Source: a plasmid
Length of the DNA stretch: 64,000 nt
Sequence record: NZ_CP049149.1
Strand: one strand, 5' to 3'
Within the stretch, counting starts at the first letter, position 1. Each line of letters opens with the position of its first letter. The position numbers and the translations under genes were made by a program. The notes beneath the pieces are model-generated. The model was not told the origin of the DNA, ran no database searches, and saw nothing but the letters and a program-made list of their open reading frames with translations. Below, in pieces: positions 8,914-57,200 of the stretch.

Positions 8914-8994
8914 AATCCGCTCTCATCGTTTTGTGGCCTGGCTGAGCTGGGTCACAATCCATGCATCAAATGAAGTTCTAAGGAAAGAAAAGAC

Positions 8995-9870: not shown

Positions 9871-9937
9871 GTACAAGCTTATCAAGTTATATTGACTGGG
9901 CGTGTTTTATTGTCCAAGTTCTTAATATCTTTTCCTG

Positions 9938-9965
9938 TGGTGGCCTCTGTGCCACCATTTTTTTT
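9938..9965 (+). terminator. rho-independent terminator
   Basis: TGGTGGC CTCTGT GCCACCA hairpin followed by T8. Confidence 0.65.
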
Positions 9966-10051
9966 GCCCCAATTTCTAGCGTTGAAGGCTTCTGCCGGAT
10001 AAACTTGCATAAGTAGATATGTATGTACTTACCTATTAATGCGAGGTTGAT

Positions 10052-11155
10052 TTGTCTCTTTTACTGAATCGTGAGCATACCAACGGTCAACTTACCAGTA
10101 CGTCGTATGCCAAAATTGTTGAAACCGTACTCAAAACTGGCGTCCATGCGGGTGATCGCACCGGCACCGGCACGATGAGTGTCTCTTATGTCCCGTCTTA
10201 CTACATGCTGACGGGTGGCTCTGTGCCGCTGATCTCCGGCAAGTCCGTTAATCTCAAACCGCTGCTGGTAGAGCTGGAGTGGTATCTGAAAGGAACCGGC
10301 AACATCCAGTTCCTGAAAGACCACGGTGTAAAAATCTGGGATGCATGGGCTGATGAAAATGGCGATTTAGGCCCGGTGTATGGCAAGCAGTGGCGTCGCT
10401 GGAACGACACCCGCATCGTTGCGCACAGCGACTATCTGCGCCAAATCGACACCTTTCGCGAACGAGGCTACAAGGTTGAGGGCTATCTGGGCGTTGAAGA
10501 AGATCGGGTGGTTTTATCCCGCGAAATTGACCAGCTACAGCGCATTGTCGACAAGCTCCGCACCAACCCTACCGATCGTCGAATCCTGCTGAATGCCTGG
10601 AACGTCGGCGAGCTGGAGGACATGAAGCTTCCACCCTGCCACTTTGTCTTCTCACTATGGAGTCGCGAGCTGGACTTTGAAACCCGTCTGGCAATGGCAA
10701 CCGAGATTGGCGTGCAGCATAACCGTCACGGCCATGAGTCTGTTTACACACAGATGCTCTGCATTCTGGAACAAGATGGCGGCATTACCGAAAGCGTGCT
10801 GGACGCGTTGGGCATCCCGAAACGCATCCTGAACTCTTGTCTGGTGCAGCGCAGCGTGGACACCTTCGTTGGGCTTCCCTTCAACATTGCAGGCTACGGC
10901 ATCCTCACCCATTTCCTCGCGAAGATCACCGGCCATATGGCTGGCGCCTTTGTGCATTTTGGCTTTGACGTTCACCTCTACGACAACCACATGGACGGCG
11001 TTAATGAGCTGATGGGGCGTGAAGTGCCGGCACATTCCGATCCTGTCGTCATTTTCCCGCATGAGTGGGCAGAGCTGGATGATTTTAAGTGGGAAGGGGT
11101 GCAGGTCTGCGGCTATGACCCGCTTCCGTGGATCAAGGTTCCAGTGGCGGTGTGA
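10052..11155 (+). CDS. thyA: thymidylate synthase (ThyA family) with two insertions
   Basis: DRTGTGT, ELEWYLKG, WADENGDLGPVYGKQWR, LPPCH (catalytic Cys), GLPFNIAGY (Asn = uracil specificity), HLYDNH; 367 aa vs 264 aa for E. coli ThyA owing to ~30 and ~45 aa insertions; TTG start with GAGG SD. Confidence 0.8.
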   Translation: MSLLLNREHTNGQLTSTSYAKIVETVLKTGVHAGDRTGTGTMSVSYVPSYYMLTGGSVPLISGKSVNLKPLLVELEWYLKGTGNIQFLKDHGVKIWDAWADENGDLGPVYGKQWRRWNDTRIVAHSDYLRQIDTFRERGYKVEGYLGVEEDRVVLSREIDQLQRIVDKLRTNPTDRRILLNAWNVGELEDMKLPPCHFVFSLWSRELDFETRLAMATEIGVQHNRHGHESVYTQMLCILEQDGGITESVLDALGIPKRILNSCLVQRSVDTFVGLPFNIAGYGILTHFLAKITGHMAGAFVHFGFDVHLYDNHMDGVNELMGREVPAHSDPVVIFPHEWAELDDFKWEGVQVCGYDPLPWIKVPVAV

Positions 11156-23929: not shown

Positions 23930-25198
23930 TTAATTACTGACAGTTTCAGGTTTCGGGAAACTGAAAAGTAAATCACGGTAGTATTCGTATTGTTTCTGGC
24001 GCAACTCGATTTCACGCGGGAGACCTTCAGTGATGGAGTTGGTCAGTGTGTCGAATTTATCCAGAATCCGAACGATTTCAGACTGGATGGCAAGGGATTT
24101 TTCCGGATTGTCCGGGCAGGGGATTGGGATTTTCAGTTTGTTTAAAACGGATTGTGTTTGGCTTGGTACTCCTCCTGCTTGGTTCATTTCGCCAAGGCCA
24201 ACCGTCGTTAAGAAGTAGTAAAGATACTTTGGCCTAATTTGTGCTTCATCAATTTCCGTATAAAAAATGGTGTCAACGGTCCAGAATGGAACATCGATGA
24301 AAAATAAATTACCAAGCGAGCCTTTTCTCGGAATTAAGACTGAAGGCTTATTATAGGCATAGGTATCTACATATCGCATGATTCCACCTGAACCGTAAAC
24401 AGGGAACTCGCCTTCGCTGAGAGATTTATGATCCTTGCCATTTCTGATGCGAGCCAAATCACTCAATGGCAACCACTCAACCTCAACCCCATCCAGCAAT
24501 TTTTCCAGATAAATAGGTTTTTCCTGCTCCTCATCAAAACTCAGCAACTGGTCGCGATAGTAGTTGTACTGCTTTTTGCGCATGGTAAGTTCAGCTGTAA
24601 GTTCAGCTGTAAGTTCAGCTGTAAGTGCAGTAAACTTATCCAGAATCCGGACGATTTCAGACTGGATAGCAAGGGACTTGTCCGGTTTATTCGGACAAGG
24701 TATAGGGATTTTGAATCCTCCCATTACTGCTGAGTTCAAGTTGTTGATGGTTGAGCTATTCAACATTTCATCGAGATATTTTTGAAAAATATCACTTGTT
24801 AAAACGTGAAATAAATAACGCGGATTTAATTTTTCATCGCATCTGACAACACCCATAAATCCGCCAAAGTAGTAGTCAATATCTGATTCAATGTAAGCAA
24901 CTTTTCCAACATGTTCACGGCTACCACTTGCTGCGCTTATCAGTATGTCGTCCTTATATAGTTTTTGCGAATCCTTTACTTTGGTGTCAAACTTCACCAG
25001 TTTGACATCATTTAAATTTAAACAATTACTAGACAAAGTGATATTGTTAGCACGAAGGACCCTGTAACCTTGACCATCTGCGCTTTCATTCGATTTGCTG
25101 TAAGTTAAACCACGTATATATTTCGCGACTTCTCCCAGAGTCTTCCACTCAACAACAACTCCATCTAGCAATTTGTCTAGATAACTCAGCTTGCTCAT
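23930..25198 (-). CDS. hsdS: type I restriction-modification specificity subunit (two TRDs, IC-family central repeat)
   Basis: two target-recognition halves each followed by [15 protein letters not shown]; central [14 protein letters not shown] and conserved [10 protein letters not shown] / [10 protein letters not shown] blocks; start overlaps hsdM stop. Confidence 0.9.
24584..24631 (-). repeat. 12-bp tandem repeat encoding (TAEL)3 in HsdS central spacer
   Basis: GTAAGTTCAGCT x3 plus degenerate 4th unit on plus strand = ACAGCTGAACTT codons on minus strand. Confidence 0.8.
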
Positions 25199-26751
25199 GA
25201 CTGCACCTCACGGCCTTCAATTTCAGCCACAATTACATCGATATCCTTACGTAACTGATCGATTTTGCCGACGGTGATTTTCAGTTCAGTATTCAGTTCG
25301 GAGATATCAATTATTTCTCGGGTATTCATGGCTTCGACGTAGCTGCTGACTGACAGGTTATAGTTATTGGCGGCAACTGTTTCATGAGGGATAGTTTTAG
25401 CGAGGTGGTCAATATCCGCTTTGCTGGCAAAGGCCTGCATAATCTGTTCGATATGACCATCAGTCAGGATATTGTTATTGGTTTCTTTCTTGAACAAACC
25501 GCTGGCATCAATAAACTGAACACTGGTGTCAGTTTTATGTTTAGACAGCACCAGAATGTTAACGGCAATGGTGGTGCCGAAGAACAGGTTTGGCGCGAGT
25601 GAAATCACCGTTTCAACATAGTTGTTGTCGACCAGGTACTGGCGGATTTTCTGCTCTGCACCGCCACGGTAGAAAATACCGGGGAAGCAGACTATTGCTG
25701 CACGTCCTTTAGCAGACAGGTAGTTCAGCGCATGTAGTACAAACGCAAAGTCAGCTTTTGATTTCGGGGCCAGTACGCCAGCTGGAGCAAAGCGCTCATC
25801 GTTAATCAGGGTCGGGTCGTCACTGCCAATCCACTTAACCGAGTACGGAGGGTTAGAGACAATCGCATCGAACGGTTTTTCATCGCCAAAGTGAGGCTCA
25901 GTCAGGGTATTCCCCAGTCTGATATCAAATTTGTCGTAGTTGATGTTATGTAGGAACATGTTCATACGCGCCAGGTTAAAGGTTGTATGATTTATCTCCT
26001 GACCATAAAAACCTTCTTCAATGATATGGTTATCAAAGTGTTTTTTCGCCTGAAGCAGCAGTGAACCGGAGCCAGCTGCAGGGTCATAGATTTTGTTGAC
26101 GTGAGTCTGACCGTGCATCGCAAGCTGAGCAATCAGCTTAGAGACGTGCTGAGGTGTGAAGAACTCCCCGCCAGACTTACCGGCATTTGCCGCATAGTTA
26201 GAAATCAGGAACTCGTAGGCATCACCAAACAGGTCAATCTGGTGCTCGTTAAAATTCCCCAGTTTTAGCCCCTCAACGCCTTTGAGAACGGCGGCAAGAC
26301 GGGTGTTTTTGTCTTTGACTGTGTTACCCAGTCGATTGCTGGTCGTATCGAAATCGGCGAACAGGCCTTTGATGTCGGCCTCCGACGGGTAGCCGTAGGC
26401 AGAGCTTTCTATAGCGACGAAGATACTGTTTAAATCAGCATTTAGCCTGTCGTTGGTGTTCGCTTTAGCGGCAACGTTGCAGAACAGCTGGCTCGGGTAG
26501 ATGAAATAGCCTTTAGTCCTGATGGCATCGTCTTTGATGTCATCGGTAATGATGCTGTCATCAAGTGCTGCATAATGTATGCTCTCATCCCCTGCTTCCA
26601 TGTAGCTGGAAAAATTCTCACTGATGAAGCGGTAGAAAAGGGCACCGAGTACATACTGTTTAAAATCCCATCCATCTACGGAGCCTCTGACATCATTGGC
26701 AATGGCCCAGATTTGGCGGTGTAGCTCTGCACGCTGCTGAAGGCTTGTCAT
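25195..26751 (-). CDS. hsdM: type I R-M N6-adenine DNA methyltransferase subunit
   Basis: N-terminal HsdM domain ([37 protein letters not shown]), AdoMet motif [11 protein letters not shown], motif IV NPPY. Confidence 0.9.
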
Positions 26752-34163: not shown

Positions 34164-34220
34164 TATTGTAAGTACTTACCTATGGCGATAGTATTACGAC
34201 GCATTTACATGGAGGTAAAA

Positions 34221-37721: not shown

Positions 37722-38282
37722 TTAAAACGGGATAATGCGTTCGACCCAATCGAACATAACGACCATCTTCCGACCGCCGCCAATGTTGAGCGTGACCTGA
37801 CAAGCGTCAACGCCTGACGACACACCTTCAATTTCACGGCCGTCCGCCATGTAGACCCTTATAGATTTCTGCGCTTCATGAGCCTGACGACAAATCTTGA
37901 AGAAGTCACGGCGGGATGGCCGATTGTCCACATAGTCCGGGTGTACAGCGATGCGACCGGTGAAGTCGTGCGCTATGCCTTCTGTCACACCTGATTCAAT
38001 GGTACTGATTCGCTCAAGTGGCAGCCTTATACGATTTTCTTTGTCGAACGGGGCAGGGCAAAGGTCGACTTTATTGCGAGACGACATTAACCCCTGAACG
38101 TACATGCAGAACACCTGACCATCATCCAGAGTGACCCTTACAGGAATAAGGGATTTGCGCCAGAACATCAGCGCTTTCTCCACGAAGGAGTAATCGCGTG
38201 GCCAGACCTCTGCGGGTATTCCATATGTGATGTCTGTAACCATAGCCTTCTGCTTATTAATTACTGGTGCCTTATTATACAA
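37722..38282 (-). CDS. hypothetical protein (186 aa) with internal sequence duplication
   Basis: two related segments VRVTLDDGQVF...IRLPLERISTI and IRVYMADGREI...MVVMFDWVERIIP. Confidence 0.5.
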   Translation of the reverse strand: MYNKAPVINKQKAMVTDITYGIPAEVWPRDYSFVEKALMFWRKSLIPVRVTLDDGQVFCMYVQGLMSSRNKVDLCPAPFDKENRIRLPLERISTIESGVTEGIAHDFTGRIAVHPDYVDNRPSRRDFFKICRQAHEAQKSIRVYMADGREIEGVSSGVDACQVTLNIGGGRKMVVMFDWVERIIPF

Positions 38283-39250: not shown

Positions 39251-39529
39251 TCACGGTAACCGTTTAAGGATATCTTCCAAATCCTCTTTGGTCATGCCCG
39301 AGTTTTCATAAATCTTCATGACTTTTTCGCGCGCTTTTGCTGACGCTTCAAGCGCCGTTGCGCTCTTGTCGAAATCGGCCATCGTCATGTTGCTCAACAC
39401 CAGATTAATGATGTCGGCCTTTGACAGCCTTATGTTGCGATCTCGCAGACGTCCCTGAAAAGACTCCAGTTTGTCGTTCGCCTTCTCGGTCAGTTGAACC
39501 TGACAGTGTATAGCGCGTTTGTCACCCAT
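39251..39529 (-). CDS. ribbon-helix-helix-like small DNA-binding protein (putative)
   Basis: N-terminal KRAIHCQVQLTEKANDKL beta-strand-then-helix pattern typical of Arc/MetJ/CopG; directly downstream of helicase. Confidence 0.4.
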   Translation of the reverse strand: MGDKRAIHCQVQLTEKANDKLESFQGRLRDRNIRLSKADIINLVLSNMTMADFDKSATALEASAKAREKVMKIYENSGMTKEDLEDILKRLP

Positions 39530-39531
39530 GC

Positions 39532-41091
39532 TTAATCTCTATTCAAAACAGTAAAATCAAAATTGCCACCTACCGGCAACACCCCCTCAGCGAATCCGGG
39601 CGTTGTGTCTATTATGTTCTTCCGCTCATAGGAGTGTGACATAAGATATTTATTACTTATATCAATGAAGTCGGTAATGAAACACACATTTGCCTTATTT
39701 TTCTTGGCTCGAAGACCACGCCCAACCCGCTGACGCATTTCGACTTCGGCCTTGCCGCCTCCAGCCAAAATGACAGCACCCACGCTCGGAACGTCTACGC
39801 CGACGTCCAGTATGGTTGAGCCGATGAGGACATCTATCTTGCCCGTGGCCAGACTGTTTAACTTAGTCTGTCTGGTAGCCTGGTTGGACTCACCATAGAT
39901 GAAATCGACTTGCAGACCGCTCTCTTTCATCATCTCCATCAGGATCTGCCCATGCCGTTTCAGACGCACCAGCGTCATGCAATTCAGCCCGTGACGTTTA
40001 TACATGAGAGCCTCACGTACTATTGCTTCATTGCGTGCCAAATTGTAAACGATGCCCAGCTGATAGGCTTTCTGGTACGACGTACCCATGCCGACCCGGA
40101 AGTTCAGATGTTTGGATGCAAGCTCCGACCGGATACGGACATTGTCCGGAGTGTAAGCGATTTTATGATACAGGAAGTAAGGTTTCGCAAGGATGCCTCG
40201 ATCAATGAGATATTTCTCCGTGACTTTGATCTCTATTCTGCCCGCAACGGCCATCAGGCGCATGTTGGCTTCGGTCGAGTCTTTCATGAAAGGCGTGGCT
40301 GTCAGCGCAAGACGATAGTCGGCGTTTACGCAGAGGCGGGCGATATCGTAGAAGTTCGAGCCGGACGATTCATGCGCCTCTTCCAGAATGAGTAGCGAGA
40401 CACTGGAAAGGAATCGTTTTACCAGCTCCCGGCGCTTGAGATGGTGGTTCTTCTTCTCAGGCGTTGCGTCCCGCGGCGGCTCTTCGAGAAAACTGGCCAG
40501 TGTCTGCACGGTTGCCACGTTGATGTGGCGCGAGACCTGAAATTCACCCGAACCGATAACGCCCACCTTCTGACCTTTCAGCCACGGCTCTCCATTTTCA
40601 GCGCGGTAGTCGATGGATTTCTGGAAATTCTCCGCCATCTGGAACATCAGGACGGAACGTGTGGTTAAAAACAGCGTCATCCGACCAATTCGGGCAGCTG
40701 CCTTGCACGCGACGTTGGATTTCCCGCCGCCAGTGGCAATCTGCGCAATCATCATCCCTTCGCGCACCAGCGTTTCCACTGTCTGATCCTGATATGCGTA
40801 GTCCGGGTTGTACGGAAATGGGTTAACTACCGGATTGGGTTTGCCAAGCGCCGGCACTTTATCCTTGCGTACATGCACGCATTTAATGCCCGCTTTGTTC
40901 AGGTTTGCAGCCACTGGCTTTGCGAATCCTGCTGGGAACGCATTTTTGCTCCAGTTGAACATCGTACTGGTGCCTTTCCAGTCACCTGCCTCCACTTCGT
41001 AGCTCAACATCTCCTGAACAAGTCGTTTTACATTGTCATCAGCGCCAGAAATAAGCGCATTGACCGCATTCGATACAATCCGAACTGTCAT
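39532..41091 (-). CDS. SF2 DEAD/DEAH-box family helicase (ResIII-like)
   Basis: Walker A TGGGKS, DEAH-like LLILEEAHE, SAT-like LTATP, C-terminal helicase domain with QRVGRGLR arginine finger. Confidence 0.7.
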   Translation of the reverse strand: MTVRIVSNAVNALISGADDNVKRLVQEMLSYEVEAGDWKGTSTMFNWSKNAFPAGFAKPVAANLNKAGIKCVHVRKDKVPALGKPNPVVNPFPYNPDYAYQDQTVETLVREGMMIAQIATGGGKSNVACKAAARIGRMTLFLTTRSVLMFQMAENFQKSIDYRAENGEPWLKGQKVGVIGSGEFQVSRHINVATVQTLASFLEEPPRDATPEKKNHHLKRRELVKRFLSSVSLLILEEAHESSGSNFYDIARLCVNADYRLALTATPFMKDSTEANMRLMAVAGRIEIKVTEKYLIDRGILAKPYFLYHKIAYTPDNVRIRSELASKHLNFRVGMGTSYQKAYQLGIVYNLARNEAIVREALMYKRHGLNCMTLVRLKRHGQILMEMMKESGLQVDFIYGESNQATRQTKLNSLATGKIDVLIGSTILDVGVDVPSVGAVILAGGGKAEVEMRQRVGRGLRAKKNKANVCFITDFIDISNKYLMSHSYERKNIIDTTPGFAEGVLPVGGNFDFTVLNRD

Positions 41092-41155
41092 AAAGCTCTT
41101 TCCTTCGTGCCTTTTGTATGTTAATTGGCTATTATAGTAAGTAATTACTTATGCA

Positions 41156-41854
41156 ATGGATTGTATCAGAAATATGGATGTGAAAATTACCATTATGCAG
41201 GTGGAAGTCGCCAACCTGCGTCCGAATCCCTGGAATACCAACTCTGTTGGGGCGCAAAACTTCGAAAAACTGAAAGGCTCTATCGAGAAATTGGGCTTTT
41301 TTAAGCCAATTCTCGCGCGGGAGCTGGACGGCGGCTTTTTTGAGATCCTCGGCGGCGAACACCGCTGGCGGGCAGCGATGGAACAGGGCATTTCAACGGT
41401 TCCCGTCATCTCCGTGGGCAAAATTAACGACCTGGTGGCCAAACAGATGTCCCTCGTCGATAACGAGCGCTACGGCGAAGACGATCAGGTCGCTTTGCAG
41501 CGCTTAATCGAAGAAATCCAGTCTGAAATCGACTACCGGTTGTCCGATATCGCCCCGTATGACGACGAAATGGCGGCAACACTCGCCAAAGCGTCCGTTA
41601 TCGATCTTGAAGCGCTGGAAGCGCTCTCCCGTGGCGATGACGAGCCGGTCGATGAGGACAAACGCGAGAAAACCGAGCGAGTCGGCGCTGAACACCAGAC
41701 GATGCGCTTCAAGGTGACGTTTGATGCGTCAGATCGCGTCGCCGACACCATCAAAACCATCATCAAAGAGCAGGGAATCAATACCGGTAACGAAATGGAG
41801 AACGCCGGGGAAGCCCTGGTGTGGCTGGTCGACTACTACAAGGAGCGTATGTAA
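41156..41854 (+). CDS. ParB/Srx-like N-terminal domain protein 1
   Basis: ParB box ILGGEHRWRAA; start uncertain (ATGs at 41156, 41174, 41195). Confidence 0.6.
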   Translation: MDCIRNMDVKITIMQVEVANLRPNPWNTNSVGAQNFEKLKGSIEKLGFFKPILARELDGGFFEILGGEHRWRAAMEQGISTVPVISVGKINDLVAKQMSLVDNERYGEDDQVALQRLIEEIQSEIDYRLSDIAPYDDEMAATLAKASVIDLEALEALSRGDDEPVDEDKREKTERVGAEHQTMRFKVTFDASDRVADTIKTIIKEQGINTGNEMENAGEALVWLVDYYKERM

Positions 41855-42522
41855 TGACCAAAAACTTTGAAATCGTCTATCGAAACCCGGCAGAACTCAT
41901 CCCGTATGAGATGAACGCCAAAAAACATGACGAACAGCAGATCCGCGATCTGGCGGCCGCCATCAAAAAGCGCGGTTTTGACCAGCCGATCACGGTCGAC
42001 AAGCACGACGTCATCATTACTGGCCACGGTCGTCGCGAGGCGGCACTTCTGGCTGGTCTGGAGCGTGTGCCGGTCATCGTTCGCGACGATCTGAGCGAAG
42101 AAGAAGTAAAGGCGAAGCGTCTGGAAGACAACCGCCTGGCCAGTATTGACTACGACGCCATCAAATTGCAGCAGGAACTGGAATCCCTGGTGCTGGGCGA
42201 CGTCGAGGTCTTCGGTTTTGAAGAGCGCGAGCTGAACGTGCTTGTCGGCAGCATGACCGAAGAGATGGAAACCGGCTCTCTGGTGCTCAATCTGGGCGAA
42301 GAGACGGAACGCCAGAAAGAAGAGCACACCGAGATCAGTCGCGAAGTGGCCGCTGAAGAAGTCCGCGTCATCGACGTATTGGGCTTTAAAACGCTCCCTG
42401 CTGGCTCTGCCATTGTGGTTGGGGATTTGCTTGCCCACATGGAAGAAATCACGGGAGAGAGCGGGGTAGACGCTTTCGTGGCGTATGCGGAGAAAGTTTC
42501 TTCTGGGGAGCTGGCTGCATGA
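41854..42522 (+). CDS. ParB/Srx-like N-terminal domain protein 2
   Basis: ITGHGRREAALLAG ParB motif; TAATG overlap with upstream gene. Confidence 0.6.
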   Translation: MTKNFEIVYRNPAELIPYEMNAKKHDEQQIRDLAAAIKKRGFDQPITVDKHDVIITGHGRREAALLAGLERVPVIVRDDLSEEEVKAKRLEDNRLASIDYDAIKLQQELESLVLGDVEVFGFEERELNVLVGSMTEEMETGSLVLNLGEETERQKEEHTEISREVAAEEVRVIDVLGFKTLPAGSAIVVGDLLAHMEEITGESGVDAFVAYAEKVSSGELAA

Positions 42523-43157
42523 GCAAATACACCATCAACGTATCGTTTCAGACCCGCGTGAACAAAACCACGCGCACGCTGGAGATTGCCGAATCGTTCG
42601 GTCTTGGCCTGGACGAAAAAGAGTGGACGCTTTACGACAATCTGGAGCTGGAAGTGAAGCAGGGCGATGTGGTGTACATCACCGGCCAATCCGGTTCCGG
42701 TAAATCCGTTGTGCTGCGCGAGCTGCAACGCCAGATGAAGGATGAAGGGCTTTCTGTAGCCTCCATCGATGACTTTACCTTCGACAATGAGGTTAACGTC
42801 ATTGACCAGCTGGGCAAAACCACCAGCGAAGCGCTGGGGCTGCTGTCTATGGCGGGATTGAATGACGCCTATCTCTTTGTGCGTAAGCCATCCGAGATGT
42901 CTGACGGTCAGAAATACCGTCTCAAGATCGCCAAGCTGATCGAGTCAGGCGCCAAAGTCTGGGCAGCCGACGAATTTGGCGCTGTTCTCGACCGCGTAAC
43001 CGCCCAGGTTGTGGCGTCGAACCTCCAGCGTGCCGCCCGAAAGGTTGGCGCGACGGTAATGGTGGCGACGACCCACGAAGACCTGAAGAACGCGCTGCGC
43101 CCGGATATGCAGATCACCAAGCACTACAAAGAACGCGTGAAGGTGGAATATGCCTGA
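42519..43157 (+). CDS. single-domain ABC-type ATPase
   Basis: Walker A GQSGSGKS, signature-like MSDGQKYRL, Walker B VWAADEFGAVLD, H-loop TTHE; ATGA overlap upstream. Confidence 0.65.
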   Translation: MSKYTINVSFQTRVNKTTRTLEIAESFGLGLDEKEWTLYDNLELEVKQGDVVYITGQSGSGKSVVLRELQRQMKDEGLSVASIDDFTFDNEVNVIDQLGKTTSEALGLLSMAGLNDAYLFVRKPSEMSDGQKYRLKIAKLIESGAKVWAADEFGAVLDRVTAQVVASNLQRAARKVGATVMVATTHEDLKNALRPDMQITKHYKERVKVEYA

Positions 43158-43404
43158 TTTGAAGATCGTAGAGCTGAAGCCATCGAAAGAGGCTGACAAC
43201 AACAACGTTGAAGTCATCCGCCTGCTGGAAGAAGCACTCCAGTACGCCAGAGAAGGCAAAAGCCAGAGCCTGGCACTGCTGATGATCAACAACGACGGCA
43301 GTGTGCTGGATTGCTGGCATAACGGTGGGCGTCCATACGTCATGGTTGGGGCGATGGAATCGCTTCGCCTGGACTTCATCAATGCCAATATCGAGCGTAG
43401 GTGA
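43150..43404 (+). CDS. small hypothetical protein (84 aa)
   Basis: overlaps ATPase stop; part of coupled operon. Confidence 0.45.
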   Translation: MPDLKIVELKPSKEADNNNVEVIRLLEEALQYAREGKSQSLALLMINNDGSVLDCWHNGGRPYVMVGAMESLRLDFINANIERR

Positions 43405-43409
43405 TCGAC

Positions 43410-44300
43410 ATGACAGGCATCATCATCAAACGCTACCGCCCGGAAGAGTTCCCGCGTCATCTGGACTTTCTGGAGCGTATGACCGTAACCAAAGGCACGG
43501 TTGAAGACTGGCACGCGCTGAAGTCGCTGCACTACAAGACGGATGGTAAGCCGTTCGCGCCAACGTATTACCGCTGCGAACTGGACGACCGGCTGGTGGG
43601 CGTCGTGGTTATGGCTTACCCGAAACTGCTGCTGGCGCCTCGCCATCGCATGTTTCCTAAGCTGAAGCCAACCACCAATACCACCGTGGCCAACCAGTAT
43701 TGGGGCCGGTACGTGAACAACAACTTTGCGGTGATCAGCCGTTCCGTTGTTGACACTCAGTACCGCGGTGTCGGCGTCTCCTATCGAATGATTAATCTGG
43801 TTAGCAGGATGCACGACCGGCCAATCATCGAGATCCAGTCGTCGATGAGCAAATACAACCCGTTCGCCATGAAAGCAGGGTTCCAGTTCATCCGTCCGGA
43901 GCGTCCGAAGAGCTATGAGAGTGCGTTGCGCGTCTTCCAGCGTCATTTCCGTTCTGACCCTGGCGACAACGAAGCGATCGTCAAAGAGCTGTTCGCCATG
44001 AGTGAGTCTCGCCGTCGTCGTGCGCTGCGCGATCTGGTCGCTGACTACCACAAGAACAGTTCCCTGGCCAAAGCCGGGCGTAATCGTGGCACGACGATTC
44101 AGGACATTGCCGACAGCCTGGTGGACGAGGCCAGCATCGTGAAGCTGCTCAAGGACATTCACAACCTGAGCTTCACGTCTCCGCTGTATGGCGTGTACCG
44201 AAACCCGGACTTTGGTCGTCAGCTGCCGGACACGCTGCCACTGCTGGCATTCGACAAACAGCCTTTGAATAAACCTCTTGAAATTGCATTACCGGCATAA
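43410..44300 (+). CDS. hypothetical protein with GNAT-fold-like N-terminal region (299 aa)
   Basis: VVDTQYRGVGVSYRMINLV resembles acyl-CoA binding motif A of GNAT fold; GTG 43401 overlapping upstream stop is alternative start. Confidence 0.5.
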   Translation: MTGIIIKRYRPEEFPRHLDFLERMTVTKGTVEDWHALKSLHYKTDGKPFAPTYYRCELDDRLVGVVVMAYPKLLLAPRHRMFPKLKPTTNTTVANQYWGRYVNNNFAVISRSVVDTQYRGVGVSYRMINLVSRMHDRPIIEIQSSMSKYNPFAMKAGFQFIRPERPKSYESALRVFQRHFRSDPGDNEAIVKELFAMSESRRRRALRDLVADYHKNSSLAKAGRNRGTTIQDIADSLVDEASIVKLLKDIHNLSFTSPLYGVYRNPDFGRQLPDTLPLLAFDKQPLNKPLEIALPA

Positions 44301-44309
44301 GGATTTGCC

Positions 44310-44576
44310 ATGACGTTGACCGACAAACAAAAAGACATCATCAAAACCATCAATTTAGGCCATGAGCGTGGGCATCTGCTCGATCTGGACGAGCTACTGG
44401 AAGTGCTGCCGTACAAAACGACCAAACAGAGTATGCAGTTCTCGATCCGCGCACTGGTGAAGAAGGGGCTGGTGGAGAAAGGAATGTGCCGCCAGCGCGG
44501 TGATTCCGGCTACCACCGTCGCACGCTGGGACTGACCACGTTAGGTCGTGCCAGAGCCAAATTACTGGTGATGTAA
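44310..44576 (+). CDS. winged-helix-like small protein (88 aa)
   Basis: helix-turn-helix-like segment SMQFSIRALVKKGLVEKG; basic C-terminus. Confidence 0.4.
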   Translation: MTLTDKQKDIIKTINLGHERGHLLDLDELLEVLPYKTTKQSMQFSIRALVKKGLVEKGMCRQRGDSGYHRRTLGLTTLGRARAKLLVM

Positions 44577-44601
44577 GTCGGTCTGGGAGCCAGTTTGAGA
44601 G

Positions 44602-44656
44602 CCTGCTTCCGTATATATAAATACTAAGTGACTTATTAAATATATACGGAAGCAGG
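44602..44656. repeat. large palindrome element, copy 2 (promoter/operator-like) upstream of terminase
   Basis: perfect 16-bp arms CCTGCTTCCGTATATA / TATATACGGAAGCAGG with 23-nt AT-rich loop; flanked by TTGAGA and TCTGAA; copy 1 at 16524-16592. Confidence 0.5.
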
Positions 44657-44771
44657 TTCTGAATACTCCCCAGCCCGGTTTTAAACACCCAGAAAACAAA
44701 TTGGTTAGGCACTGAATTAAACAAGTTGTTTAGGAGCGCAAGGATGCGCTCTGAGTGTTTTAGAGGGATCT

Positions 44772-45413
44772 ATGACTGTAGAAAAAGACGAGAGCAAAAC
44801 TCGCCTGACACCAGCTGAGTGGGCAGAAGCCGAAGCGAAGTGGACTTCCGGTGAATACACACTCTCCAAGCTGGAGGAAGAGTACGGCATTCGTCGTGAA
44901 ACGCTCTCCAGACATTTCAAAAAGCGTGGATTAGAGAAAGGCGCGGACTCCGTTGGGAAGATGGTGCGCGAGTCGCTTAAATCCGACGCAGAGCTGCGTG
45001 CGAAGGCGCGTGCAGAGAAAATCGAAGAGCGCCGGACTCGTTACGACGATTGGGCGTTCGCACTCGGTCGTATGGTGATGCATGAGGTGGCCACAGCTAA
45101 GAAGGACGGCAGGCCACTGGCAGCCATCGAAGATGACCTGAAGAGTCTCCAGCGTGCCAGCGGCACACTCGCTAAGTGCTTCGAAATATCCTCGAAAGCA
45201 CTTGGTATGGATCGCGTGGAGAACGAGGACGACGAAATCCCGAGCCTGGTATTTGGCGAACTTACGCCTTCCCAGGTGGCGCAGCTGCGTAAGGAAGATG
45301 ATGAGCCGGATCTGATTGATGACGATCTGCTTGAGTCACTCGAAGAGGAAGCACTGAGCGAAGCTGAGGGCGATTCTGACGCGTCTGGTGATGAAAGTGA
45401 TGGGAGCGTCTAA
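44772..45413 (+). CDS. terminase small subunit (putative)
   Basis: immediately upstream of TerL with stop/start 2 nt apart; HTH-like N-terminus; acidic C-terminus. Confidence 0.5.
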   Translation: MTVEKDESKTRLTPAEWAEAEAKWTSGEYTLSKLEEEYGIRRETLSRHFKKRGLEKGADSVGKMVRESLKSDAELRAKARAEKIEERRTRYDDWAFALGRMVMHEVATAKKDGRPLAAIEDDLKSLQRASGTLAKCFEISSKALGMDRVENEDDEIPSLVFGELTPSQVAQLRKEDDEPDLIDDDLLESLEEEALSEAEGDSDASGDESDGSV

Positions 45414-45415
45414 CT

Positions 45416-46672
45416 ATGGCCATCCCGTCGTCTCTGAGTCTCGTACAGCTGCATTCTGGGCAGATGCAAGTCTTCCAGTCGCCACATCGTTTCAAAGTGG
45501 TGTGTGCGGGTCGACGCTGGGGTAAATCCCGGTTGTCGATCTCCACCATCATCCGCGCGGCAGCCAAAGAGAAGAAGCAACGTGTCTGGTACGTCGCACC
45601 GACGTACCAGATGGCTCGCCAGATCTTGTGGGATGACCTGCAGGAAGTTCTGCCGCGTAAATGGGTTCGTAAGAAAAACGACACCACGATGACCATCGTG
45701 CTGAAGAACGGCTCTGAAATCGCGCTGAAAGGTGCGGATAAGCCCGATACGCTTCGTGGTGTGGCACTGCACTTTGTGGTGCTCGATGAATTTCAGGATA
45801 TGAAGCCGGACACCTGGTACAAGGTACTGCGTCCGACACTGTCCTCTACCCGTGGCGGTGCGCTGATCATCGGTACGCCAAAAGGCTTCTCCGAGTTCCA
45901 CAAGCTGTGGACTATCGGTCAGAACAAAGATTTGCAACGCAAGGGGCAGTGGAAGAGCTGGCAGTTCGTTACGGCTGATTCTCCGTTCGTACCGAGCGCG
46001 GAAATCGAAGCAGCGAAGAACGATATGGACCCTAAATCGTTCGCACAGGAATACCTGGCCAGCTTCGAGAACATGTCCGGGCGCGTCTACTATCCGTTCG
46101 ACCGCAACGTGCATGTTAAGCCGCTCCAGTTCAATCCGAAGCTGCCGATCTGGGTGGGGCAGGACTTTAACATCGACCCAATGTCCTCGGTCATCCTCCA
46201 GCCACAGCCAAACGGCGAACTCTGGGCTGTCGATGAGCTGGTGCTGTTTTCATCCAACACCGCGGAAGTGTGTGACGAACTGGAGCGCCGTTACTGGCGC
46301 TGGAAGTCACAGGTCACGATCTTCCCTGACCCGGCTGGCGCCTACCGCCAGCACGCGCGCGGTGAATCGGACGTGGACATCTTCAAGGAAAAGGGCTTCC
46401 TGCGCGTCGATTATCCGAAGAAGCACCCGCCCATTGCAGACCGTGTGAACGCTGTGAACCGTATGCTGATGAGCGCTTCTGGTGAAACCCGACTGTATAT
46501 CGACCCGAAGTGCAAACACCTGATCGACTCGCTTGAGAAGGTTATCTATAAACCCGGCTCCCGCGATATGGATAAGACGGGTGGCATCGAGCACAGCGCA
46601 GACGCATTGGGTTATCCAGTTCATCGTAGGTATCCGGTGAAAAATCGTGTTATTCTTGGCGGTTCAAGGTAA
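45416..46672 (+). CDS. terminase large subunit
   Basis: Walker A VVCAGRRWGKS, Walker B HFVVLDE, C-terminal RNase H-like nuclease region. Confidence 0.85.
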   Translation: MAIPSSLSLVQLHSGQMQVFQSPHRFKVVCAGRRWGKSRLSISTIIRAAAKEKKQRVWYVAPTYQMARQILWDDLQEVLPRKWVRKKNDTTMTIVLKNGSEIALKGADKPDTLRGVALHFVVLDEFQDMKPDTWYKVLRPTLSSTRGGALIIGTPKGFSEFHKLWTIGQNKDLQRKGQWKSWQFVTADSPFVPSAEIEAAKNDMDPKSFAQEYLASFENMSGRVYYPFDRNVHVKPLQFNPKLPIWVGQDFNIDPMSSVILQPQPNGELWAVDELVLFSSNTAEVCDELERRYWRWKSQVTIFPDPAGAYRQHARGESDVDIFKEKGFLRVDYPKKHPPIADRVNAVNRMLMSASGETRLYIDPKCKHLIDSLEKVIYKPGSRDMDKTGGIEHSADALGYPVHRRYPVKNRVILGGSR

Positions 46673-46704: not shown

Positions 46705-48279
46705 ATGGAATTGACTGACAAGCAAATCAAAGACCTAGTGGAGCGACGCCACCCGGAATACTTGAAGAAAAAAGAACATTGGGATTTCCTCGCCAGCACT
46801 TACGCTGGCGGGCGTGCCTGGTTCACCGACAACATCTTCCGCTACTTCAAAGAGGGCGATCAGGAGTTCAAGGAGCGTCTGGAGCGCGCCTACCGCTTCA
46901 ATCATACCCGCGAAGTGGTCAACCTCATCAACAAGTATCTGTTCAAAGAGGACATTCATCGCAACACCGATGAGGCACCGGAGCAGATCCGCCATTTCTG
47001 GAGGCGAGCCACACGCCAGAATGCTTCAATTGACGCATTCATGGCGGCTATCGATCTCCAGTCGTCAATTTATGGCCGTATCTGGGTTGTCGTTGACAGC
47101 ACCATGAATGGCGATGTGGAGTCCGTTGCTGACGAGAAAAACAAGGACGCGCGTGCCTACGCCTACTGGATTTCTCCGCAGCAGATGCTCGATGTCGCCT
47201 GGGATGACGATGGGAACATGCTTTGGGCGCTGATTGTGGAAGTGGCGCGTGACGATGCCGATCCGTTCACCTCAACCGGTCAGGAGTATCAGCGTTACCG
47301 CCTGTGGACACAGAACGAATGGTATCTCTTCCGTGAGGAAGTCAAAAGGGGATCTGGTGGCGCAGGCCGTCGCCAGTCAAAGGTCGTGCTGGAGGATTCT
47401 GGCGAGCATAAATTGGGCATGGTGCCGGTCTTCCCGGTTGATTGCATTGGTGAAAGCGAATCGCCTTATTTCAGCCCATCTCTCATCGACGATATCGCCT
47501 ATCTCGATCGTGCTGTTGCCAACTACCTGTCGAACCTTGATGCCATTATTCAGGATCAGACGTTCAGCCAGCTGGCCATTCCGGTGCAGTCACTGCTGCC
47601 AGGCGATGAAAACCATACCAAAGTCCTTGAAATGGGCACCAAGCGCGTCTTTACCTTCGATTCCGAGAGTGGCAACCAGCCGTTCTACCTGTCGCCAGAC
47701 CCGAAACAGGCACAGATGATCATCACCACCATTAAGACGGTGATTAACGAGATCTACCATTCCGTTGGGGTGGCTGGTGAGCGCACCAAACAGGACAACG
47801 CCCAGGGTATCGACAACTCTTCCGGCGCAGCCAAGATGTATGACTTCCAGCGCGTTAACAGTCTGCTGGTGACAAAAGCGGAACGTCTCGAAAGGGCGGA
47901 GCGCCAGATGATGCAGTTGGTAGCGAAATGGATGGGGATCAGTCTGGATGAAGATAACTCTCTCATCTCCTACCCGGAAAGCTTTGATATTCGTGGTCTG
48001 ACAGACGAATTTGCGGTTGCTGAAAAACTCGCGCTTCTGCAAGCGCCTGATTCTGTACGTCGGCACCAGATGGAAATGCTCATTGAGAAGGTGTTCCCGA
48101 ACATTTCCGAGGCGATGAAAAAGGAATTTGATAAAGACCTCTTGAATTTTCCGCCAAAAAATGATCTAAACACCCTTGAAAATAAGTCAGTACTTACTTA
48201 TGATCGAGGGGCAGCCCAAGCAAGCGGGCAAGATCAACCCCGAGGGAATGGGGACTCATCTACTCAAGAGACCGAGTGA
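46705..48279 (+). CDS. portal protein (putative)
   Basis: 524-aa ORF directly after TerL in virion module. Confidence 0.6.
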   Translation: MELTDKQIKDLVERRHPEYLKKKEHWDFLASTYAGGRAWFTDNIFRYFKEGDQEFKERLERAYRFNHTREVVNLINKYLFKEDIHRNTDEAPEQIRHFWRRATRQNASIDAFMAAIDLQSSIYGRIWVVVDSTMNGDVESVADEKNKDARAYAYWISPQQMLDVAWDDDGNMLWALIVEVARDDADPFTSTGQEYQRYRLWTQNEWYLFREEVKRGSGGAGRRQSKVVLEDSGEHKLGMVPVFPVDCIGESESPYFSPSLIDDIAYLDRAVANYLSNLDAIIQDQTFSQLAIPVQSLLPGDENHTKVLEMGTKRVFTFDSESGNQPFYLSPDPKQAQMIITTIKTVINEIYHSVGVAGERTKQDNAQGIDNSSGAAKMYDFQRVNSLLVTKAERLERAERQMMQLVAKWMGISLDEDNSLISYPESFDIRGLTDEFAVAEKLALLQAPDSVRRHQMEMLIEKVFPNISEAMKKEFDKDLLNFPPKNDLNTLENKSVLTYDRGAAQASGQDQPRGNGDSSTQETE

Positions 48280-50102: not shown

Positions 50103-50177
50103 CAATTTTTGTAGGTAATAACTTACCTATGTGTTAAGGGTGGGCTATACGCCCACCTTTTTTGTAGGAGCAAGAGT

Positions 50178-54285: not shown

Positions 54286-57200
54286 CAAGGGAATGTCACA
54301 AAACGTAGAGTTTATCCTGTCGCTGGAAGACAAGCAGTTTACAGCGTCAATCGACCGGGCGGGTAAGTTACTTACCAGATTCGGTGAGCAGGCCACCAAG
54401 CCAGCTCAGAAAATTAACAGCCTGGAACGCTCGTTGGGTTCGGTCTCCCGCATCATCGGCGTTCTGGAATCCAGGCTCGATGCCACGGCAGACAAACTAC
54501 AGGACGTAGCTGCTGGCTTCGAGCTTGTTTCCGATGCTTCGCGTAAAGCGCGTGGCAACATCACCAGTCTCAATGCGGGGTTGAAAGCCCTCGTTGAGCG
54601 CGTCGACTCCACCACTTCATCCGTTAACAAGCTTACTACTTCACTGCGCAAGGTTCAGTCAGAGCTAAACGAGTTCTCTGATTGGGCGACGTTTGCGAGC
54701 AAGAGCGCCAGCCGCTTTGGCATGGAAGTCAAAGAGACCTCTTCGGCCATTGGCGGCATGAATACGCGTTTGGGAGCCACGAGCAAAAAACTCAGCAATT
54801 GGGGTGTGACGACCAGTCAGGCCGCCGAAGGGCTGAAAAAAGTGCGCGATCAGATGGACGCGGTTATTGGTCGCCAGCAGCTCATTGGCAAGCCTGTACG
54901 CGTGCGCACAGTAGGAAATGGTGACGGCTCGGGACATGGCGGCAACGGTCGACGCGATGGATTTGCTGGTCATGGCGGGAGAAGCAGTGAAGGGAGCATG
55001 TTCTCCGGTCTGCGCGGCAACATTTTCCTTCTGGGTGAGGTCGGTGATGCCGCCAGAACAGTGACCGATATCCTGTTCGGCTGGCAAAAACCCATCGTCG
55101 AAGCCTCCGCACAGATGGAACGTATGCGCGTCATGCTGCGCGGCTTGAACAAAGACAAAGCCAATCCGGCACAAGCGGCCGCAGATGACATGCAGTACAT
55201 CGTGGGTATGGCTCAAAACGCGCCATTCGCGATGGAGGCATTAACAGATGCTTTCGTGAAATTCCGTTCCGCTGGTCTCGATCCGACTGATGGCTCTATG
55301 AAGTCATTGGTGGACTCTGTCGCCCGCTTCGGTGGTGACAGTGTGCTGCTTAAGCGCGCGGCAGTGGCTGTACAACAGATGTCTGGTAAGGGCGTCGTGT
55401 CGATGGAAGAGCTGCGCCAGCAATTAGGTGAAGCTGTGCCAAACGCGATGCAAGCAATGGCGGATGCTGCCGGTATCACGATGGGCGAGCTGACCAAAGC
55501 GGTTGCGAGCGGTACGGTCGAGGCGAAACAGGCGCTTTCGTTGATGTTCGTTGGTCTGCGTGCTGAAAACCAGAATGCAGCCAAAGACATGATGCAAACC
55601 TATACCGGTGCGCTGGCACAGCTGCAAACCTCCTTCACGCTCTTTGCTGATCGCGTCGGTCAGGCGGGCTATCTCGATTCTCTCTCCAAAGGGATGAAAG
55701 AGCTGGCGTCCATCATGAACAGCGCAGAGGGCATTTCGTTCGCTAACTCTCTTGGCTCCGGTCTCAACTCAGCAATTGACTCGCTACGTGATCTGGCGCA
55801 GTGGCTGGCAAGAAATCAGGAGTTAGTCACCAGCCTGGGCGAAGCGGTCGCAGCAATGGTGGCGTTTAAAATAATGCGCGCTGGCATCATGGGTGTGGTT
55901 GGCACTGCGGGCGAGATGGTCAATGCGTTTGCGAAGATGTCCACCGCGATACAGGCGCCGTTCAACATGGGTGCGACCGCAGTGACGCGTTTTAATCGCG
56001 CTGCGCGGATGGGGCTGGGGCCGATACCATCGCTGATCTTCTCTATTCGAGGCGCGATAGCGGGGCTTCAGGGGGCGTTTGCTGGTCTGACTGCGTTCAT
56101 GGCAGCAAACCCGATTGGCGCAGCGTTTACCGTGGCCACTGTCGCCATCGCTGGGCTGATAACGTACATGACCATGCTCCGCAGCGAGACGTCCAAAGTC
56201 GTTGACGAGATCCGCAAAATCCCGGAAGCGATGACGGCCGCCAAGCGCGCGCAGATGGTTGAGTACAAAGAGCGCCTCGATCGTCAGATTTCCCAGAAGC
56301 AGCAGGAACTCAACTCTGGCGAAAAGGTGATTTATGGCCCCGGTATGGCTGGCACCACCGTCAAAGTAGATCGGCAGAAGGTGGAGTCCGAGCTTAAAGA
56401 CCTGCTCGCCGAACGCGAGCGTCTGGGCGGAGCCATCTCGATGGGGGATGCGGCGGTCGCCAAGCGGCAGGCTAAAGAAGCTGCCGAAACGCAGATTGAG
56501 AAAATCCGCGCCGACAACCAGGTTTTCTCAGCTTCGTTTGTGAAAGCGCGTCAGGAAGCACTGGAGAAGATCCAGAAAATCACTGACGACAAATCGCTGT
56601 CCGATGACGAGAAAAACAAACTGCTCGCGCCGCTCCGTGAGACGGTAAACAACTCCTACATGAAGCCAGCGCAAAATCTGGTGGAGGCGCTTTCTAAGCG
56701 TAAGACGGCGACGGAAAAGGAGATTGCCCATTACAGCGATCTGCTTGAGAAAGCGAAGAAGGAGGGGAATACCGAGCAAATCCAGAAGCTGGAAGGCAGC
56801 ATTCGTGGCTATCAGGAGCATCTGGAAGCTGTTGCTCAGGAGCTGACGCAGGCCGAGTTTGAGCGCGACAGCGCGTCGAAAACCGGTAAAGGCGTCGTGT
56901 CCAACCAGGGCACCGTTTTGGGTCTGGGAACAAACGATAAGGCGTCGCAGAAAGCGCTGGCGCAGTTCATGCGAAACCAGATGGACTCGGCCAGATACCA
57001 GCGCACCATGCCGGACGGTACGCCGATGCTGGACTTCGAAGGCAAGCCTATCGTTGGACCTAAACAGCTCAAGACGCAGTTGAGCCTGCAAAAAGCCTCC
57101 AGCGCAAACTCTCTGGAAAAGATGAGCGATGAAGAGCGTACAGCTGCCATTGCTGCATTGACCAAAGCGCGTGAACTGGATGCCGCAGCAGCAGAGAAAG

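Follow-up and report, generated by a model that had tools for sequence, protein, structure and literature searches.

A conserved operon beside the terminase genes of SSU5-family phage-plasmids encodes the split form of a widespread viral ABC-GNAT protein

Throughout the SSU5-like lineage of phages and phage-plasmids, an operon is retained between a helicase gene and the terminase genes, though none of its genes has an assigned function, and the question raised by this locus is what the operon does. It was analyzed here in 64,000 nucleotides (nt) of the plasmid record NZ_CP049149.1 (the window; one strand, 5' to 3', with positions numbered within it), which its sequence places in a phage-plasmid of the SSU5/pHCM2/pMT1 family. 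The cassette has long been annotated yet is functionally uncharacterized. Its catalytic heart is a two-subunit enzyme, consisting of a soluble ABC ATPase and a basic GNAT-fold acyltransferase, and what is new here is the recognition of this pair as the split form of a widespread fused viral gene. The operon comprises six genes, encoding proteins of the following kinds (aa, amino acids).

41156-41854, plus strand: ParB1, with a ParB_N domain (phrog_723); its TAA stop codon shares an A with the ATG of ParB2 at 41854 (TAATG)
41854-42522, plus strand: ParB2, with a ParB_N domain (phrog_930); overlaps the start of the ABC gene at 42519 (ATGA)
42519-43157, plus strand: soluble single-domain ABC ATPase; 8-nt overlap with the gene for the 84-aa protein
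43150-43404, plus strand: 84-aa protein (phrog_796), filling a variable slot between the ABC and GNAT genes
43401-44300, plus strand: GNAT-fold acyltransferase-like protein, of 299 aa if read from the GTG at 43401 (GTGA overlap)
44310-44576, plus strand: 88-aa basic protein, a probable winged helix-turn-helix (wHTH) protein (phrog_900), after a 9-nt gap from the GNAT gene

The open reading frames (ORFs) and their junctions, read directly, bear out an earlier note on this DNA, which described a packed six-gene operon at 41156-44576, with overlapping or nearly abutting genes, divergent from a gene for a superfamily 2 (SF2) helicase. All of the motifs quoted there were found by direct reading (GEHRWRAA, GHGRREAA, GQSGSGKS, SDGQKYRL, DEFGAVLD, and QYRGVGVSYRMIN), and Pfam confirms the two ParB proteins (ParB_N twice), the ABC ATPase (ABC_tran), and the helicase (DEAD/ResIII/Helicase_C). 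The GNAT protein had been given as 299 aa; the GTG start at 43401 is possible, but the ATG at 43410 (296 aa) is the likelier start, because it is preceded by a Shine-Dalgarno sequence (AGGTGA) and PGAP picks the ATG start in a Cronobacter relative.

A profile of the 299-aa family, searched against 1.8 billion representatives, returned 1009 relatives, many of them 440 to 560 aa long with the GNAT-like part beginning at about residue 200, and more than 100 relatives of this length carry an N-terminal ABC domain (Pfam). The GNAT-family profile matches the fused proteins at 1e-16 to 1e-28, the window ABC protein aligns over 207 aa with the N-terminal half of one fused protein (P0277) at 46% identity, and the residues invariant in the split window proteins are invariant in the fused family too. 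The ABC protein and the 296- to 299-aa protein of the window are thus split halves of a fused ABC-GNAT protein, homologous to it from end to end. In the window itself the two domains are not in one polypeptide but are encoded by separate genes (42519-43157 and 43401-44300) with the 84-aa gene between them. A homologue search with the window ABC protein returned close relatives only.

The catalytic motif set of the window ABC protein is complete (Walker A, Q/signature, Walker B with the catalytic Glu, D-loop, and H-loop), and the ATPase and GNAT motifs are conserved in 27 SSU5-lineage orthologues, the sole loss being that of the HYK motif in one decayed copy (locus L114). A confident model of the fused protein as one unit was obtained (pLDDT, 89.4; pTM, 0.83), with an ABC portion similar to the nucleotide-binding domains of transporters and to soluble ABC proteins associated with enzymes (ABCE1, PhnK/L, and ABC-F). 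Neither the operon nor the fused homologues include a membrane protein, and the annotation "ABC transporter" reflects the domain only.

The second subunit, for which a GNAT-like acyl-CoA motif had been proposed, proved on structure comparison to have a true GNAT fold, with a mixed sheet and a β4-α3 acyl-CoA site, to which is added a helical insertion of about 90 residues ahead of the last strand. The acyl-CoA loop R122-G-V-G125-V-S is invariant as R-x-x-G-x-[SAG] in the family alignment (A1) and in all orthologues, and the HYK motif is also conserved in the family. Furthermore, the isoelectric point (pI) is basic across the family (8.5 to 9.8), which is compatible with nucleic acid binding. 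Pfam Acetyltransf_10 scores only 13.5 bits on the window protein, below its cut-off of 23.6, and some fused homologues do match Acetyltransf_1, Acetyltransf_7, or Acetyltransf_10. Sequence and profile searches found no solved structure of the family. The kinship to Mom that had been suggested holds for structure, in which Mom ranks sixth in the PDB and first in BFVD, but not for sequence, as hhalign of alignment A1 against Mom of phage Mu gives a probability of 0.3%. Naa10, RimI, and Gcn5 score about equally to Mom in the structural comparison; the fold alone is common, and membership of the Mom family was rejected on sequence.

The ABC-GNAT enzyme is virus specific and is repeatedly tied to genes of viral DNA replication and packaging. 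More than 2000 fused ABC-GNAT proteins were found, chiefly in Nitrososphaerota and Bathyarchaeia, where the gene overlaps the 3' end of the gene for the large terminase (TerL) and lies at the border of a tailed provirus. About 50 of 80 IMG/VR loci (among L136 to L211) have the order tail fibre (YQBQ)-129 aa-151 aa-TerL-ABC-GNAT, and the same archaeal TerL-ABC-GNAT arrangement is seen in L126, L129, L130, and L131 (6001-7470). These archaeal TerL loci form one viral lineage and therefore count as a single observation. Other contexts are unrelated to it. A PolB-ABC-GNAT fusion of 1260 aa, with ABC-GNAT joined to the C terminus of a family-B DNA polymerase (P0312; L116 10001-13783, IMGVR_UViG_3300037137_000553), is present on 12 contigs; the replication module around it also encodes a 5'-3' exonuclease, a primase-helicase, RecA, an RNA ligase, and an SbcC-like protein. 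In unrelated bacterial phages the fused gene is also seen directly upstream of DnaE, overlapping a UDG-PolA gene, overlapping a Prim-Pol gene, and between ribonucleotide reductase and PolB. In the pair L209 (9473-10549) and L133 (9522-10385), one fused gene is directly upstream of an adenylosuccinate-synthetase-like gene and the other of an Amidoligase_2 gene, the latter locus having TerL and portal genes downstream.

Two side observations concern these fused genes. The adenylosuccinate-synthetase-like neighbor is 358 aa long, the size of PurZ, so that 2-aminoadenine genomes are possible. Among the fused proteins (P0286 and P0274) are one ABC-GNAT protein with a LAGLIDADG intein inside the ABC domain and a thaumarchaeal cluster with a C-terminal TFIIB cyclin repeat.

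Within its own lineage the cassette is a core, vertically inherited operon of SSU5-like phages and phage-plasmids. The 7.4-kb block 39251-46672 matches SSU5-family phages, with 93% identity to Salmonella phage SSU5 and 82 to 83% identity to Klebsiella and Escherichia coli relatives, including the phage-plasmid Cyrano. It also matches 806 plasmids, the best being Cronobacter sakazakii pCS1 (97%), with Salmonella Typhi pHCM2 and plasmids of Yersinia, Klebsiella, E. coli, and Enterobacter among the others. PHROG families are matched by all 10 proteins of the region, eight of them over the full length, including all six operon proteins. These phage, plasmid, and PHROG matches indicate that the cassette genes are real and widespread. 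The gene neighborhood check named in the earlier note was made on 28 related loci drawn from alpha-, beta-, and gammaproteobacteria, many on contigs of about 100 to 118 kb and several in chromosomes, and revealed conserved synteny: wherever the contig reaches, the order is invariably helicase (minus strand), then ParB1, ParB2, ABC, a variable slot, GNAT, and wHTH, then TerS, TerL, and portal. The identity of the GNAT protein falls to 36 to 46% in distant members, and the cassette proteins have diverged in step with TerL and portal, which argues for a vertically inherited core rather than a mobile island. In addition, prophages integrated in chromosomal contigs (L004, L097, L098, L107, and L114) retain the cassette, and the module therefore serves more than plasmid life alone.

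The genes that flank the operon on either side are as follows.

39251-39529, minus strand: 92-aa protein, a full-length match to phrog_1466, in which no function is assigned; 2 nt from the helicase gene
39532-41091, minus strand: SF2 (UvsW/XPB-like) DNA helicase with DEAD, ResIII, and Helicase_C domains (phrog_16, DNA helicase)
44772-45413, plus strand: TerS-like protein (phrog_867)
45416-46672, plus strand: large terminase TerL, downstream of the TerS-like gene
46705-48279, plus strand: portal, after TerL

The cassette thus adjoins the terminase genes, as had been described. The helicase gene is in the same position in 26 of the 28 loci, the other two being on short contigs that end before it, and the L004 helicase homologue has a weak UvsW_N match. 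The 92-aa protein was found only in close relatives among these loci, and its proposed identity as a ribbon-helix-helix (RHH) regulator was not upheld, no RHH match being found in Pfam (E ≤ 0.1), NCBIfam, or the PDB (E ≤ 10). The divergent region between the helicase gene and ParB1 is 64 bp long (41092-41155); a scan of it called no sigma-70 promoter, and no Rfam family matched in the region. A terminator-like GC hairpin with a T-rich tail lies at 44733-44752, about 20 nt upstream of the TerS start, a position at which it would set the ParB-GNAT operon apart from that of the terminase.

Two of the six operon genes are small. The 84-aa gene had been counted as an operon member, and the ORF does exist, but it is absent or replaced in relatives and is not conserved: it is missing in Cyrano, a 183-aa gene takes its place in a Klebsiella phage, and zero to three other genes are found elsewhere. 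Among SSU5-lineage orthologues the distance between the ABC and GNAT genes is anywhere from -4 nt to over 1 kb, and the 84-aa gene is therefore regarded as the occupant of a variable slot. In L003, an Ectothiorhodospira relative, this slot (8961-9999) holds genes for a Phage_gp49_66 protein, a 96-aa protein, and an RyR-domain protein, and it acts as a moron insertion hotspot. The 88-aa protein (pI 10.1), by contrast with the 84-aa gene, is the conserved last member of the operon and is present in most related loci. Its reading as a wHTH protein is sustained in part, by moderate similarity, but the matches are to MarR/PadR/RosR at E values of 0.01 to 0.4 and to a PADLOC CARF-wHTH model at 2.8e-4; it is probably a wHTH DNA binder.

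ParB1 and ParB2 are acidic (pI 4.6), with strongly acidic linkers (pI 4.1 to 4.4), and are paralogous, with 31% identity in the N-domain. ParB_N (PF02195; cut-off 26.3 bits) matches ParB1 at 51.7 bits (9.6e-14) and ParB2 at 35.7 bits (8.9e-9), and both proteins align to structures of Spo0J, Noc, and ParB. The boxes GEHRWRAA and DNERYG of ParB1 and GHGRREAA and EDNR of ParB2 are invariant in alignments A5 and A8. ParB1 keeps the Spo0J-type GxxRxxA nucleotide-binding box and aligns to the N-terminal domains of Spo0J and Noc. ParB2 matches phrog_930 at 1.6e-114, while its residues 2 to 158 match phrog_498, annotated as DNA methyltransferase, at 2.1e-32 and the PADLOC model MTase_II (PDLC03229) at 7e-18; its first ~158 residues are on these matches homologous to the ParB module of phage ParB-DNA methyltransferase fusions. 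In those fusions the module has a presumed role in DNA loading or targeting. Pfam and NCBIfam detected just the N-terminal domain in ParB1 and ParB2, with no helix-turn-helix (HTH) or centromere-binding domain.

Both ParB proteins end in a conserved strand-helix-helix module of about 50 aa (MRFKV...NAGDALV and GFKRV...GADAFV). An RHH identity for this module was considered and rejected, as it has the pattern only: a PDB profile search found nothing, and hhalign against CopG gave a probability of 3%.

What reaction, then, might this enzyme catalyze? The favored reading, to which we give a probability of roughly one in three (0.35), is ATP-dependent, acyl-CoA-dependent modification of phage DNA while it is replicated or packaged, the ParB proteins serving to target the enzyme. 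It is favored because of the associations with polymerase, primase, and terminase genes, the analogy with ParB-methyltransferases, the basic GNAT surface, and precedents among GNAT enzymes. ATP-driven closing of an ABC dimer would position or remodel the GNAT subunit; the soluble ABC proteins PhnK/L and ABCE1 act on partner complexes. The GNAT subunit would move an acyl group from acyl-CoA to phage DNA that is being replicated or is about to be packaged, an exocyclic amine on a base being the most plausible acceptor, and the DNA in the virion would thereby be protected against nucleases of the host. The paralogous ParB/Srx proteins of the SSU5 lineage may, by analogy, be NTP-dependent DNA-loading or targeting factors for the enzyme, the small wHTH protein could be a site-specific DNA binder or regulator, and the 84-aa gene would be a passenger in the variable slot.

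Several known enzymes offer partial parallels. One is COG2401 (MK0520-like, "ABC-type ATPase fused to predicted acetyltransferase"), which shares Walker A/B, SDGQ, HYK, RxxGxG, and the C-terminal Y..NP strand. It is, however, fused and annotated by domain only, whereas the window has separate genes, a variable slot, and two ParB genes and a wHTH gene alongside. Full-text literature searches on this name, or pairing components of the cassette, found no functional study of these genes, and papers on SSU5-type elements held nothing on the cassette genes. The phage ParB-DNA methyltransferase fusions, like the window, couple a ParB module to a group-transfer enzyme near the terminase, but the group-transfer enzyme there is an S-adenosylmethionine-dependent methyltransferase, and in the window it is an ABC-assisted GNAT on a separate polypeptide. 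Mom of phage Mu (PDB 8bv8), a GNAT-fold enzyme that makes the methylcarbamoyl modification of DNA adenine, lacks an ABC partner, ParB partners, and the helical insertion. The RNA cytidine N4-acetyltransferases TmcA and NAT10 may be analogous in logic, in that an NTPase is coupled to a GNAT acting on a nucleic acid base, although TmcA uses a RecD-like helicase domain and the window cassette an ABC domain. PaMx11 gp48, a DNA 5-aminomethyl-dU acetyltransferase, works in a 5-hydroxymethyldeoxyuridine (5-hmdU) pathway (kinase, aGPT-Pplase, and FAD lyase) that is absent from the cassette. PaMx11 gp48 provides the precedent of a GNAT that acetylates a base within the DNA polymer, and RNA acetylation by NAT10/TmcA depends on ATP (PMC8989533).

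A number of observations weigh against DNA modification. The ABC domain is unlike those of the DNA-clamping ABC ATPases Rad50, SMC, MutS, and UvrA, and sequence similarity to Mom is nil. DNA loading by the ParB proteins is an assumption, since they are acidic and have no recognizable HTH. No ParB genes were found next to fused ABC-GNAT copies in the loci examined, and ParB is therefore dispensable for the core activity. No modified base was found reported for SSU5-type phages in the literature searched; marks such as N4-acetyl-dC and N6-acyl-dA are base labile and therefore easily missed in standard nucleoside analyses. Finally, adjacency to polymerases and terminase suits equally an enzyme that acts on those proteins. 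A broader form of the DNA modification reading is unlikely: that ABC-GNAT is an ATP-dependent DNA acyltransferase, a hitherto unrecognized near-hallmark of tailed viruses of Bacteria and Archaea, placing its acyl mark at the fork or the packaging motor, to which ParB clamps would deliver it in SSU5-type phage-plasmids, including Yersinia pestis pMT1 and S. Typhi pHCM2.

The reading that competes most closely is protein acetylation. Here the enzyme would acylate the replisome, the terminase, or a host nucleoid-associated protein or silencer, and the ParB proteins would be KorB/VirB-like NTP-dependent regulators or antisilencers acting at palindromes. The substrates that most characterized GNATs acetylate are proteins or small molecules, and in the structural comparison Naa10, RimI, and Gcn5 are about level with Mom; in addition, the TFIIB-repeat fusion links the enzyme to the transcription machinery. 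The regulatory part of this explanation turns on the following DNA elements, neither of which is assigned to a strand.

41138-41151: 14-bp perfect palindrome TAAGTAATTACTTA within the 64-bp divergent region; its end is 5 nt short of the ParB1 ATG
537-550, 10010-10031, 34169-34178, 41138-41151, 44625-44635, 48183-48200, 50112-50125, and 54364-54374: dispersed sites of the same motif

The palindrome that the earlier note had placed in the divergent region is present, but it is not specific to that promoter. The arrangement TAAGT-N(0-12)-ACTTA has seven exact sites in the window against 0.23 expected, an enrichment of about 30-fold that none of 100 shuffles reached, while the reverse arrangement of the half-sites is at chance level. 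A longer, 18-bp ancestral form, TAAGTCAG-NN-CTGACTTA, has 37 copies, almost all intergenic, in 370 kb of distant relatives (L094 to L114). In the relatives it lies 1 to 24 nt before ParB1, 53 to 92 nt before TerS, and about 10 nt after TerL, ahead of portal, and also before head genes and between ParB2 and ABC. Window copies also stand ahead of the SbcD-like and ThyA genes, with the sites just upstream of plus-strand operons. The motif is kept at the same position in relatives of about 40% amino acid identity among alpha-, beta-, and gammaproteobacteria. As it recurs throughout the lineage, the "operator" before ParB1 is one site of a lineage-wide regulon or promoter motif, and the dispersed palindrome is probably an operator or promoter element of a phage-encoded factor. 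A site at 24622 was dropped, as it belongs to the 12-bp TAEL repeat of hsdS described below.

Placed before ParB1, TerS, portal, head, SbcD-like, and ThyA genes and conserved in the lineage, the palindrome resembles the operators of KorB of RK2, a ParB-family protein whose gene is likewise preceded by a palindrome that recurs before many operons of the replicon, and the GxxRxxA NTP-binding box of ParB1 would suit such a role. KorB differs, however, in that ParB1 and ParB2 have no detectable HTH and the window cassette has no KorA or IncC partners. No other DNA-binding domain was found in either ParB protein, the C-terminal module having no significant RHH match, and the binder of the palindrome could instead be the wHTH protein, possibly at the TAAGT...ACTTA sites, or the repressor encoded at 37722-38282. 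Furthermore, the PolB fusion and the TerL overlap indicate DNA transactions, not regulation specifically. Protein acylation with ParB-mediated regulation is rather unlikely, somewhat less probable than DNA modification.

The position of the cassette also suggests an accessory role in packaging or in the formation of termini, in which the ParB proteins would be ParB-domain nucleases or NTPases and ABC-GNAT would aid the terminase at an adjacent cos/pac palindrome, analogous to the HNH or ParB-like nuclease proteins encoded beside terminases. One further element bears on this.

44595-44663, no strand assigned: 69-bp near-perfect palindrome with 24-nt arms and an AT-rich center with TAAGTGACTTA, between the operon and TerS

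The DNA fold of this palindrome has an energy of -20.4 kcal/mol (z, -9.3), and its center carries the same TAAGT/ACTTA half-sites. The linear GenBank records of SSU5 and Cyrano end at window position 44638/44639, 8 nt from the dyad center, and long inverted repeats are found at the matching position in L004, L094 (34-nt arms), L109, and L110. These features suggest that the palindrome is a candidate cos/pac site or an operon boundary, the record ends hinting at a cos site, with 44622-44638 as the candidate interval, that is nicked symmetrically in a staggered way. From the end of the operon to the palindrome is 20 nt, TerS and TerL follow, the order cassette-palindrome-TerS is conserved, and ABC-GNAT overlaps TerL in the archaeal proviruses. 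A packaging role is nevertheless decidedly unlikely. The fused gene occurs in replication modules far from the terminase in several unrelated phages, no known packaging step calls for an acyl-CoA transferase, the archaeal TerL linkage is essentially one viral lineage and one observation, and the record ends of SSU5 and Cyrano are candidate cos ends only.

Plasmid partition or maintenance, with the ParB proteins binding a centromere and the ABC ATPase as the motor, is suggested by the presence of two ParB_N proteins beside an ATPase on a low-copy phage-plasmid and by database annotations as "chromosome partitioning protein." It was rejected as highly improbable: the ATPase is of the ABC type and not of the ParA/Walker type, the cassette is retained in the integrated prophages listed above, no HTH or centromere-binding domain was detected, and the GNAT partner is left unexplained. 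Moreover, pMT1/SSU5-type plasmids have a separate P1-like parAB.

Membership in a described system (Dnd, Ssp, Dpd, BREX, MADS, or thymidine hypermodification) is largely refuted, since the ParB-like proteins of Dnd (DndB) and Dpd (DpdB) and weak PADLOC matches (ABC to mad3, mad8, and DndF; helicase to PbeA and DpdF) are outweighed by the generic P-loop or helicase nature of all PADLOC/NCBIfam matches and by the lack in the cassette of cysteine desulfurase, PAPS-reductase-like protein, TGT/DpdA, PglX, 5-hmdU kinase, and aGPT-Pplase. In Dpd and Dnd systems a ParB/Srx-family protein works with a DNA-modifying enzyme and ATPase activity, and a Dnd/Ssp/Dpd-like identity had been raised for the cassette, but their defining enzymes were not detected in it by Pfam, NCBIfam, or PADLOC. 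For Dnd and Ssp, these searches found no cysteine desulfurase, DndC/SspD PAPS-reductase-like protein, or SMC-like DndD/SspC; for Dpd, there is no TGT-like protein, and the helicase has a weak generic DpdF match only. Thus, the cassette differs from the DpdA/DpdB and DndB systems in having no equivalent of the TGT (DpdA) or of DndA/C/D/E. Within the window, to which the scan was confined, a link to thymidine hypermodification gained no support: the cassette encodes no dUMP hydroxymethylase, 5-hmdU DNA kinase, or aGPT-Pplase, and ThyA is a genuine thymidylate synthase rather than a hydroxymethylase. The earlier suggestion that no described architecture is matched therefore stands, PADLOC and NCBIfam having returned nothing specific and the literature searches no paper. 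The data suit each of the three roles named in the earlier note, DNA hypermodification, antirestriction, and packaging accessory.

Some further features lie elsewhere in the window. The thymidylate synthase follows a MazG-like nucleotide pyrophosphohydrolase (291 aa) at 8995-11155, with a motif site before it, and is unusually long (367 aa). It passes the thymidylate synthase equivalog TIGR03284, and the model matched in three stretches, which suggests that the protein contains insertions. A type I restriction-modification system is encoded on the minus strand at 23930-26751, with HsdM at 25195-26751 (TIGR00497 at 7e-192) and hsdS downstream; hsdR is annotated in the Cronobacter relative. Within the minus-strand ORF 23930-25198, positions 24585-24632 hold three exact copies and one degenerate copy of the 12-bp unit GTAAGTTCAGCT, which encode a TAEL-type repeat in the central region of a type IC HsdS. 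The copy number of the TAEL repeat sets the spacer length of the HsdS recognition sequence.

The plasmids that bear the cassette have clinical reach, their hosts being Klebsiella, E. coli, Enterobacter, Yersinia (pMT1-type), Salmonella (pHCM2), and Cronobacter, and phage-plasmids of this family are reported to spread resistance genes (PMC9600943). The enzyme reaches beyond the SSU5 lineage to archaeal proviruses and unrelated phages, and solving the function of ABC-GNAT once would annotate thousands of viral genes. SSU5 and Cyrano are existing phages in which DNA acylation and protein acylation are both directly testable. If the enzyme is a DNA acyltransferase, it would represent a new chemistry and a new ATP-dependent mechanism for phage DNA modification and antirestriction, and possibly a new tool enzyme; if it acetylates proteins, it would be a conserved viral control point on replication or packaging.

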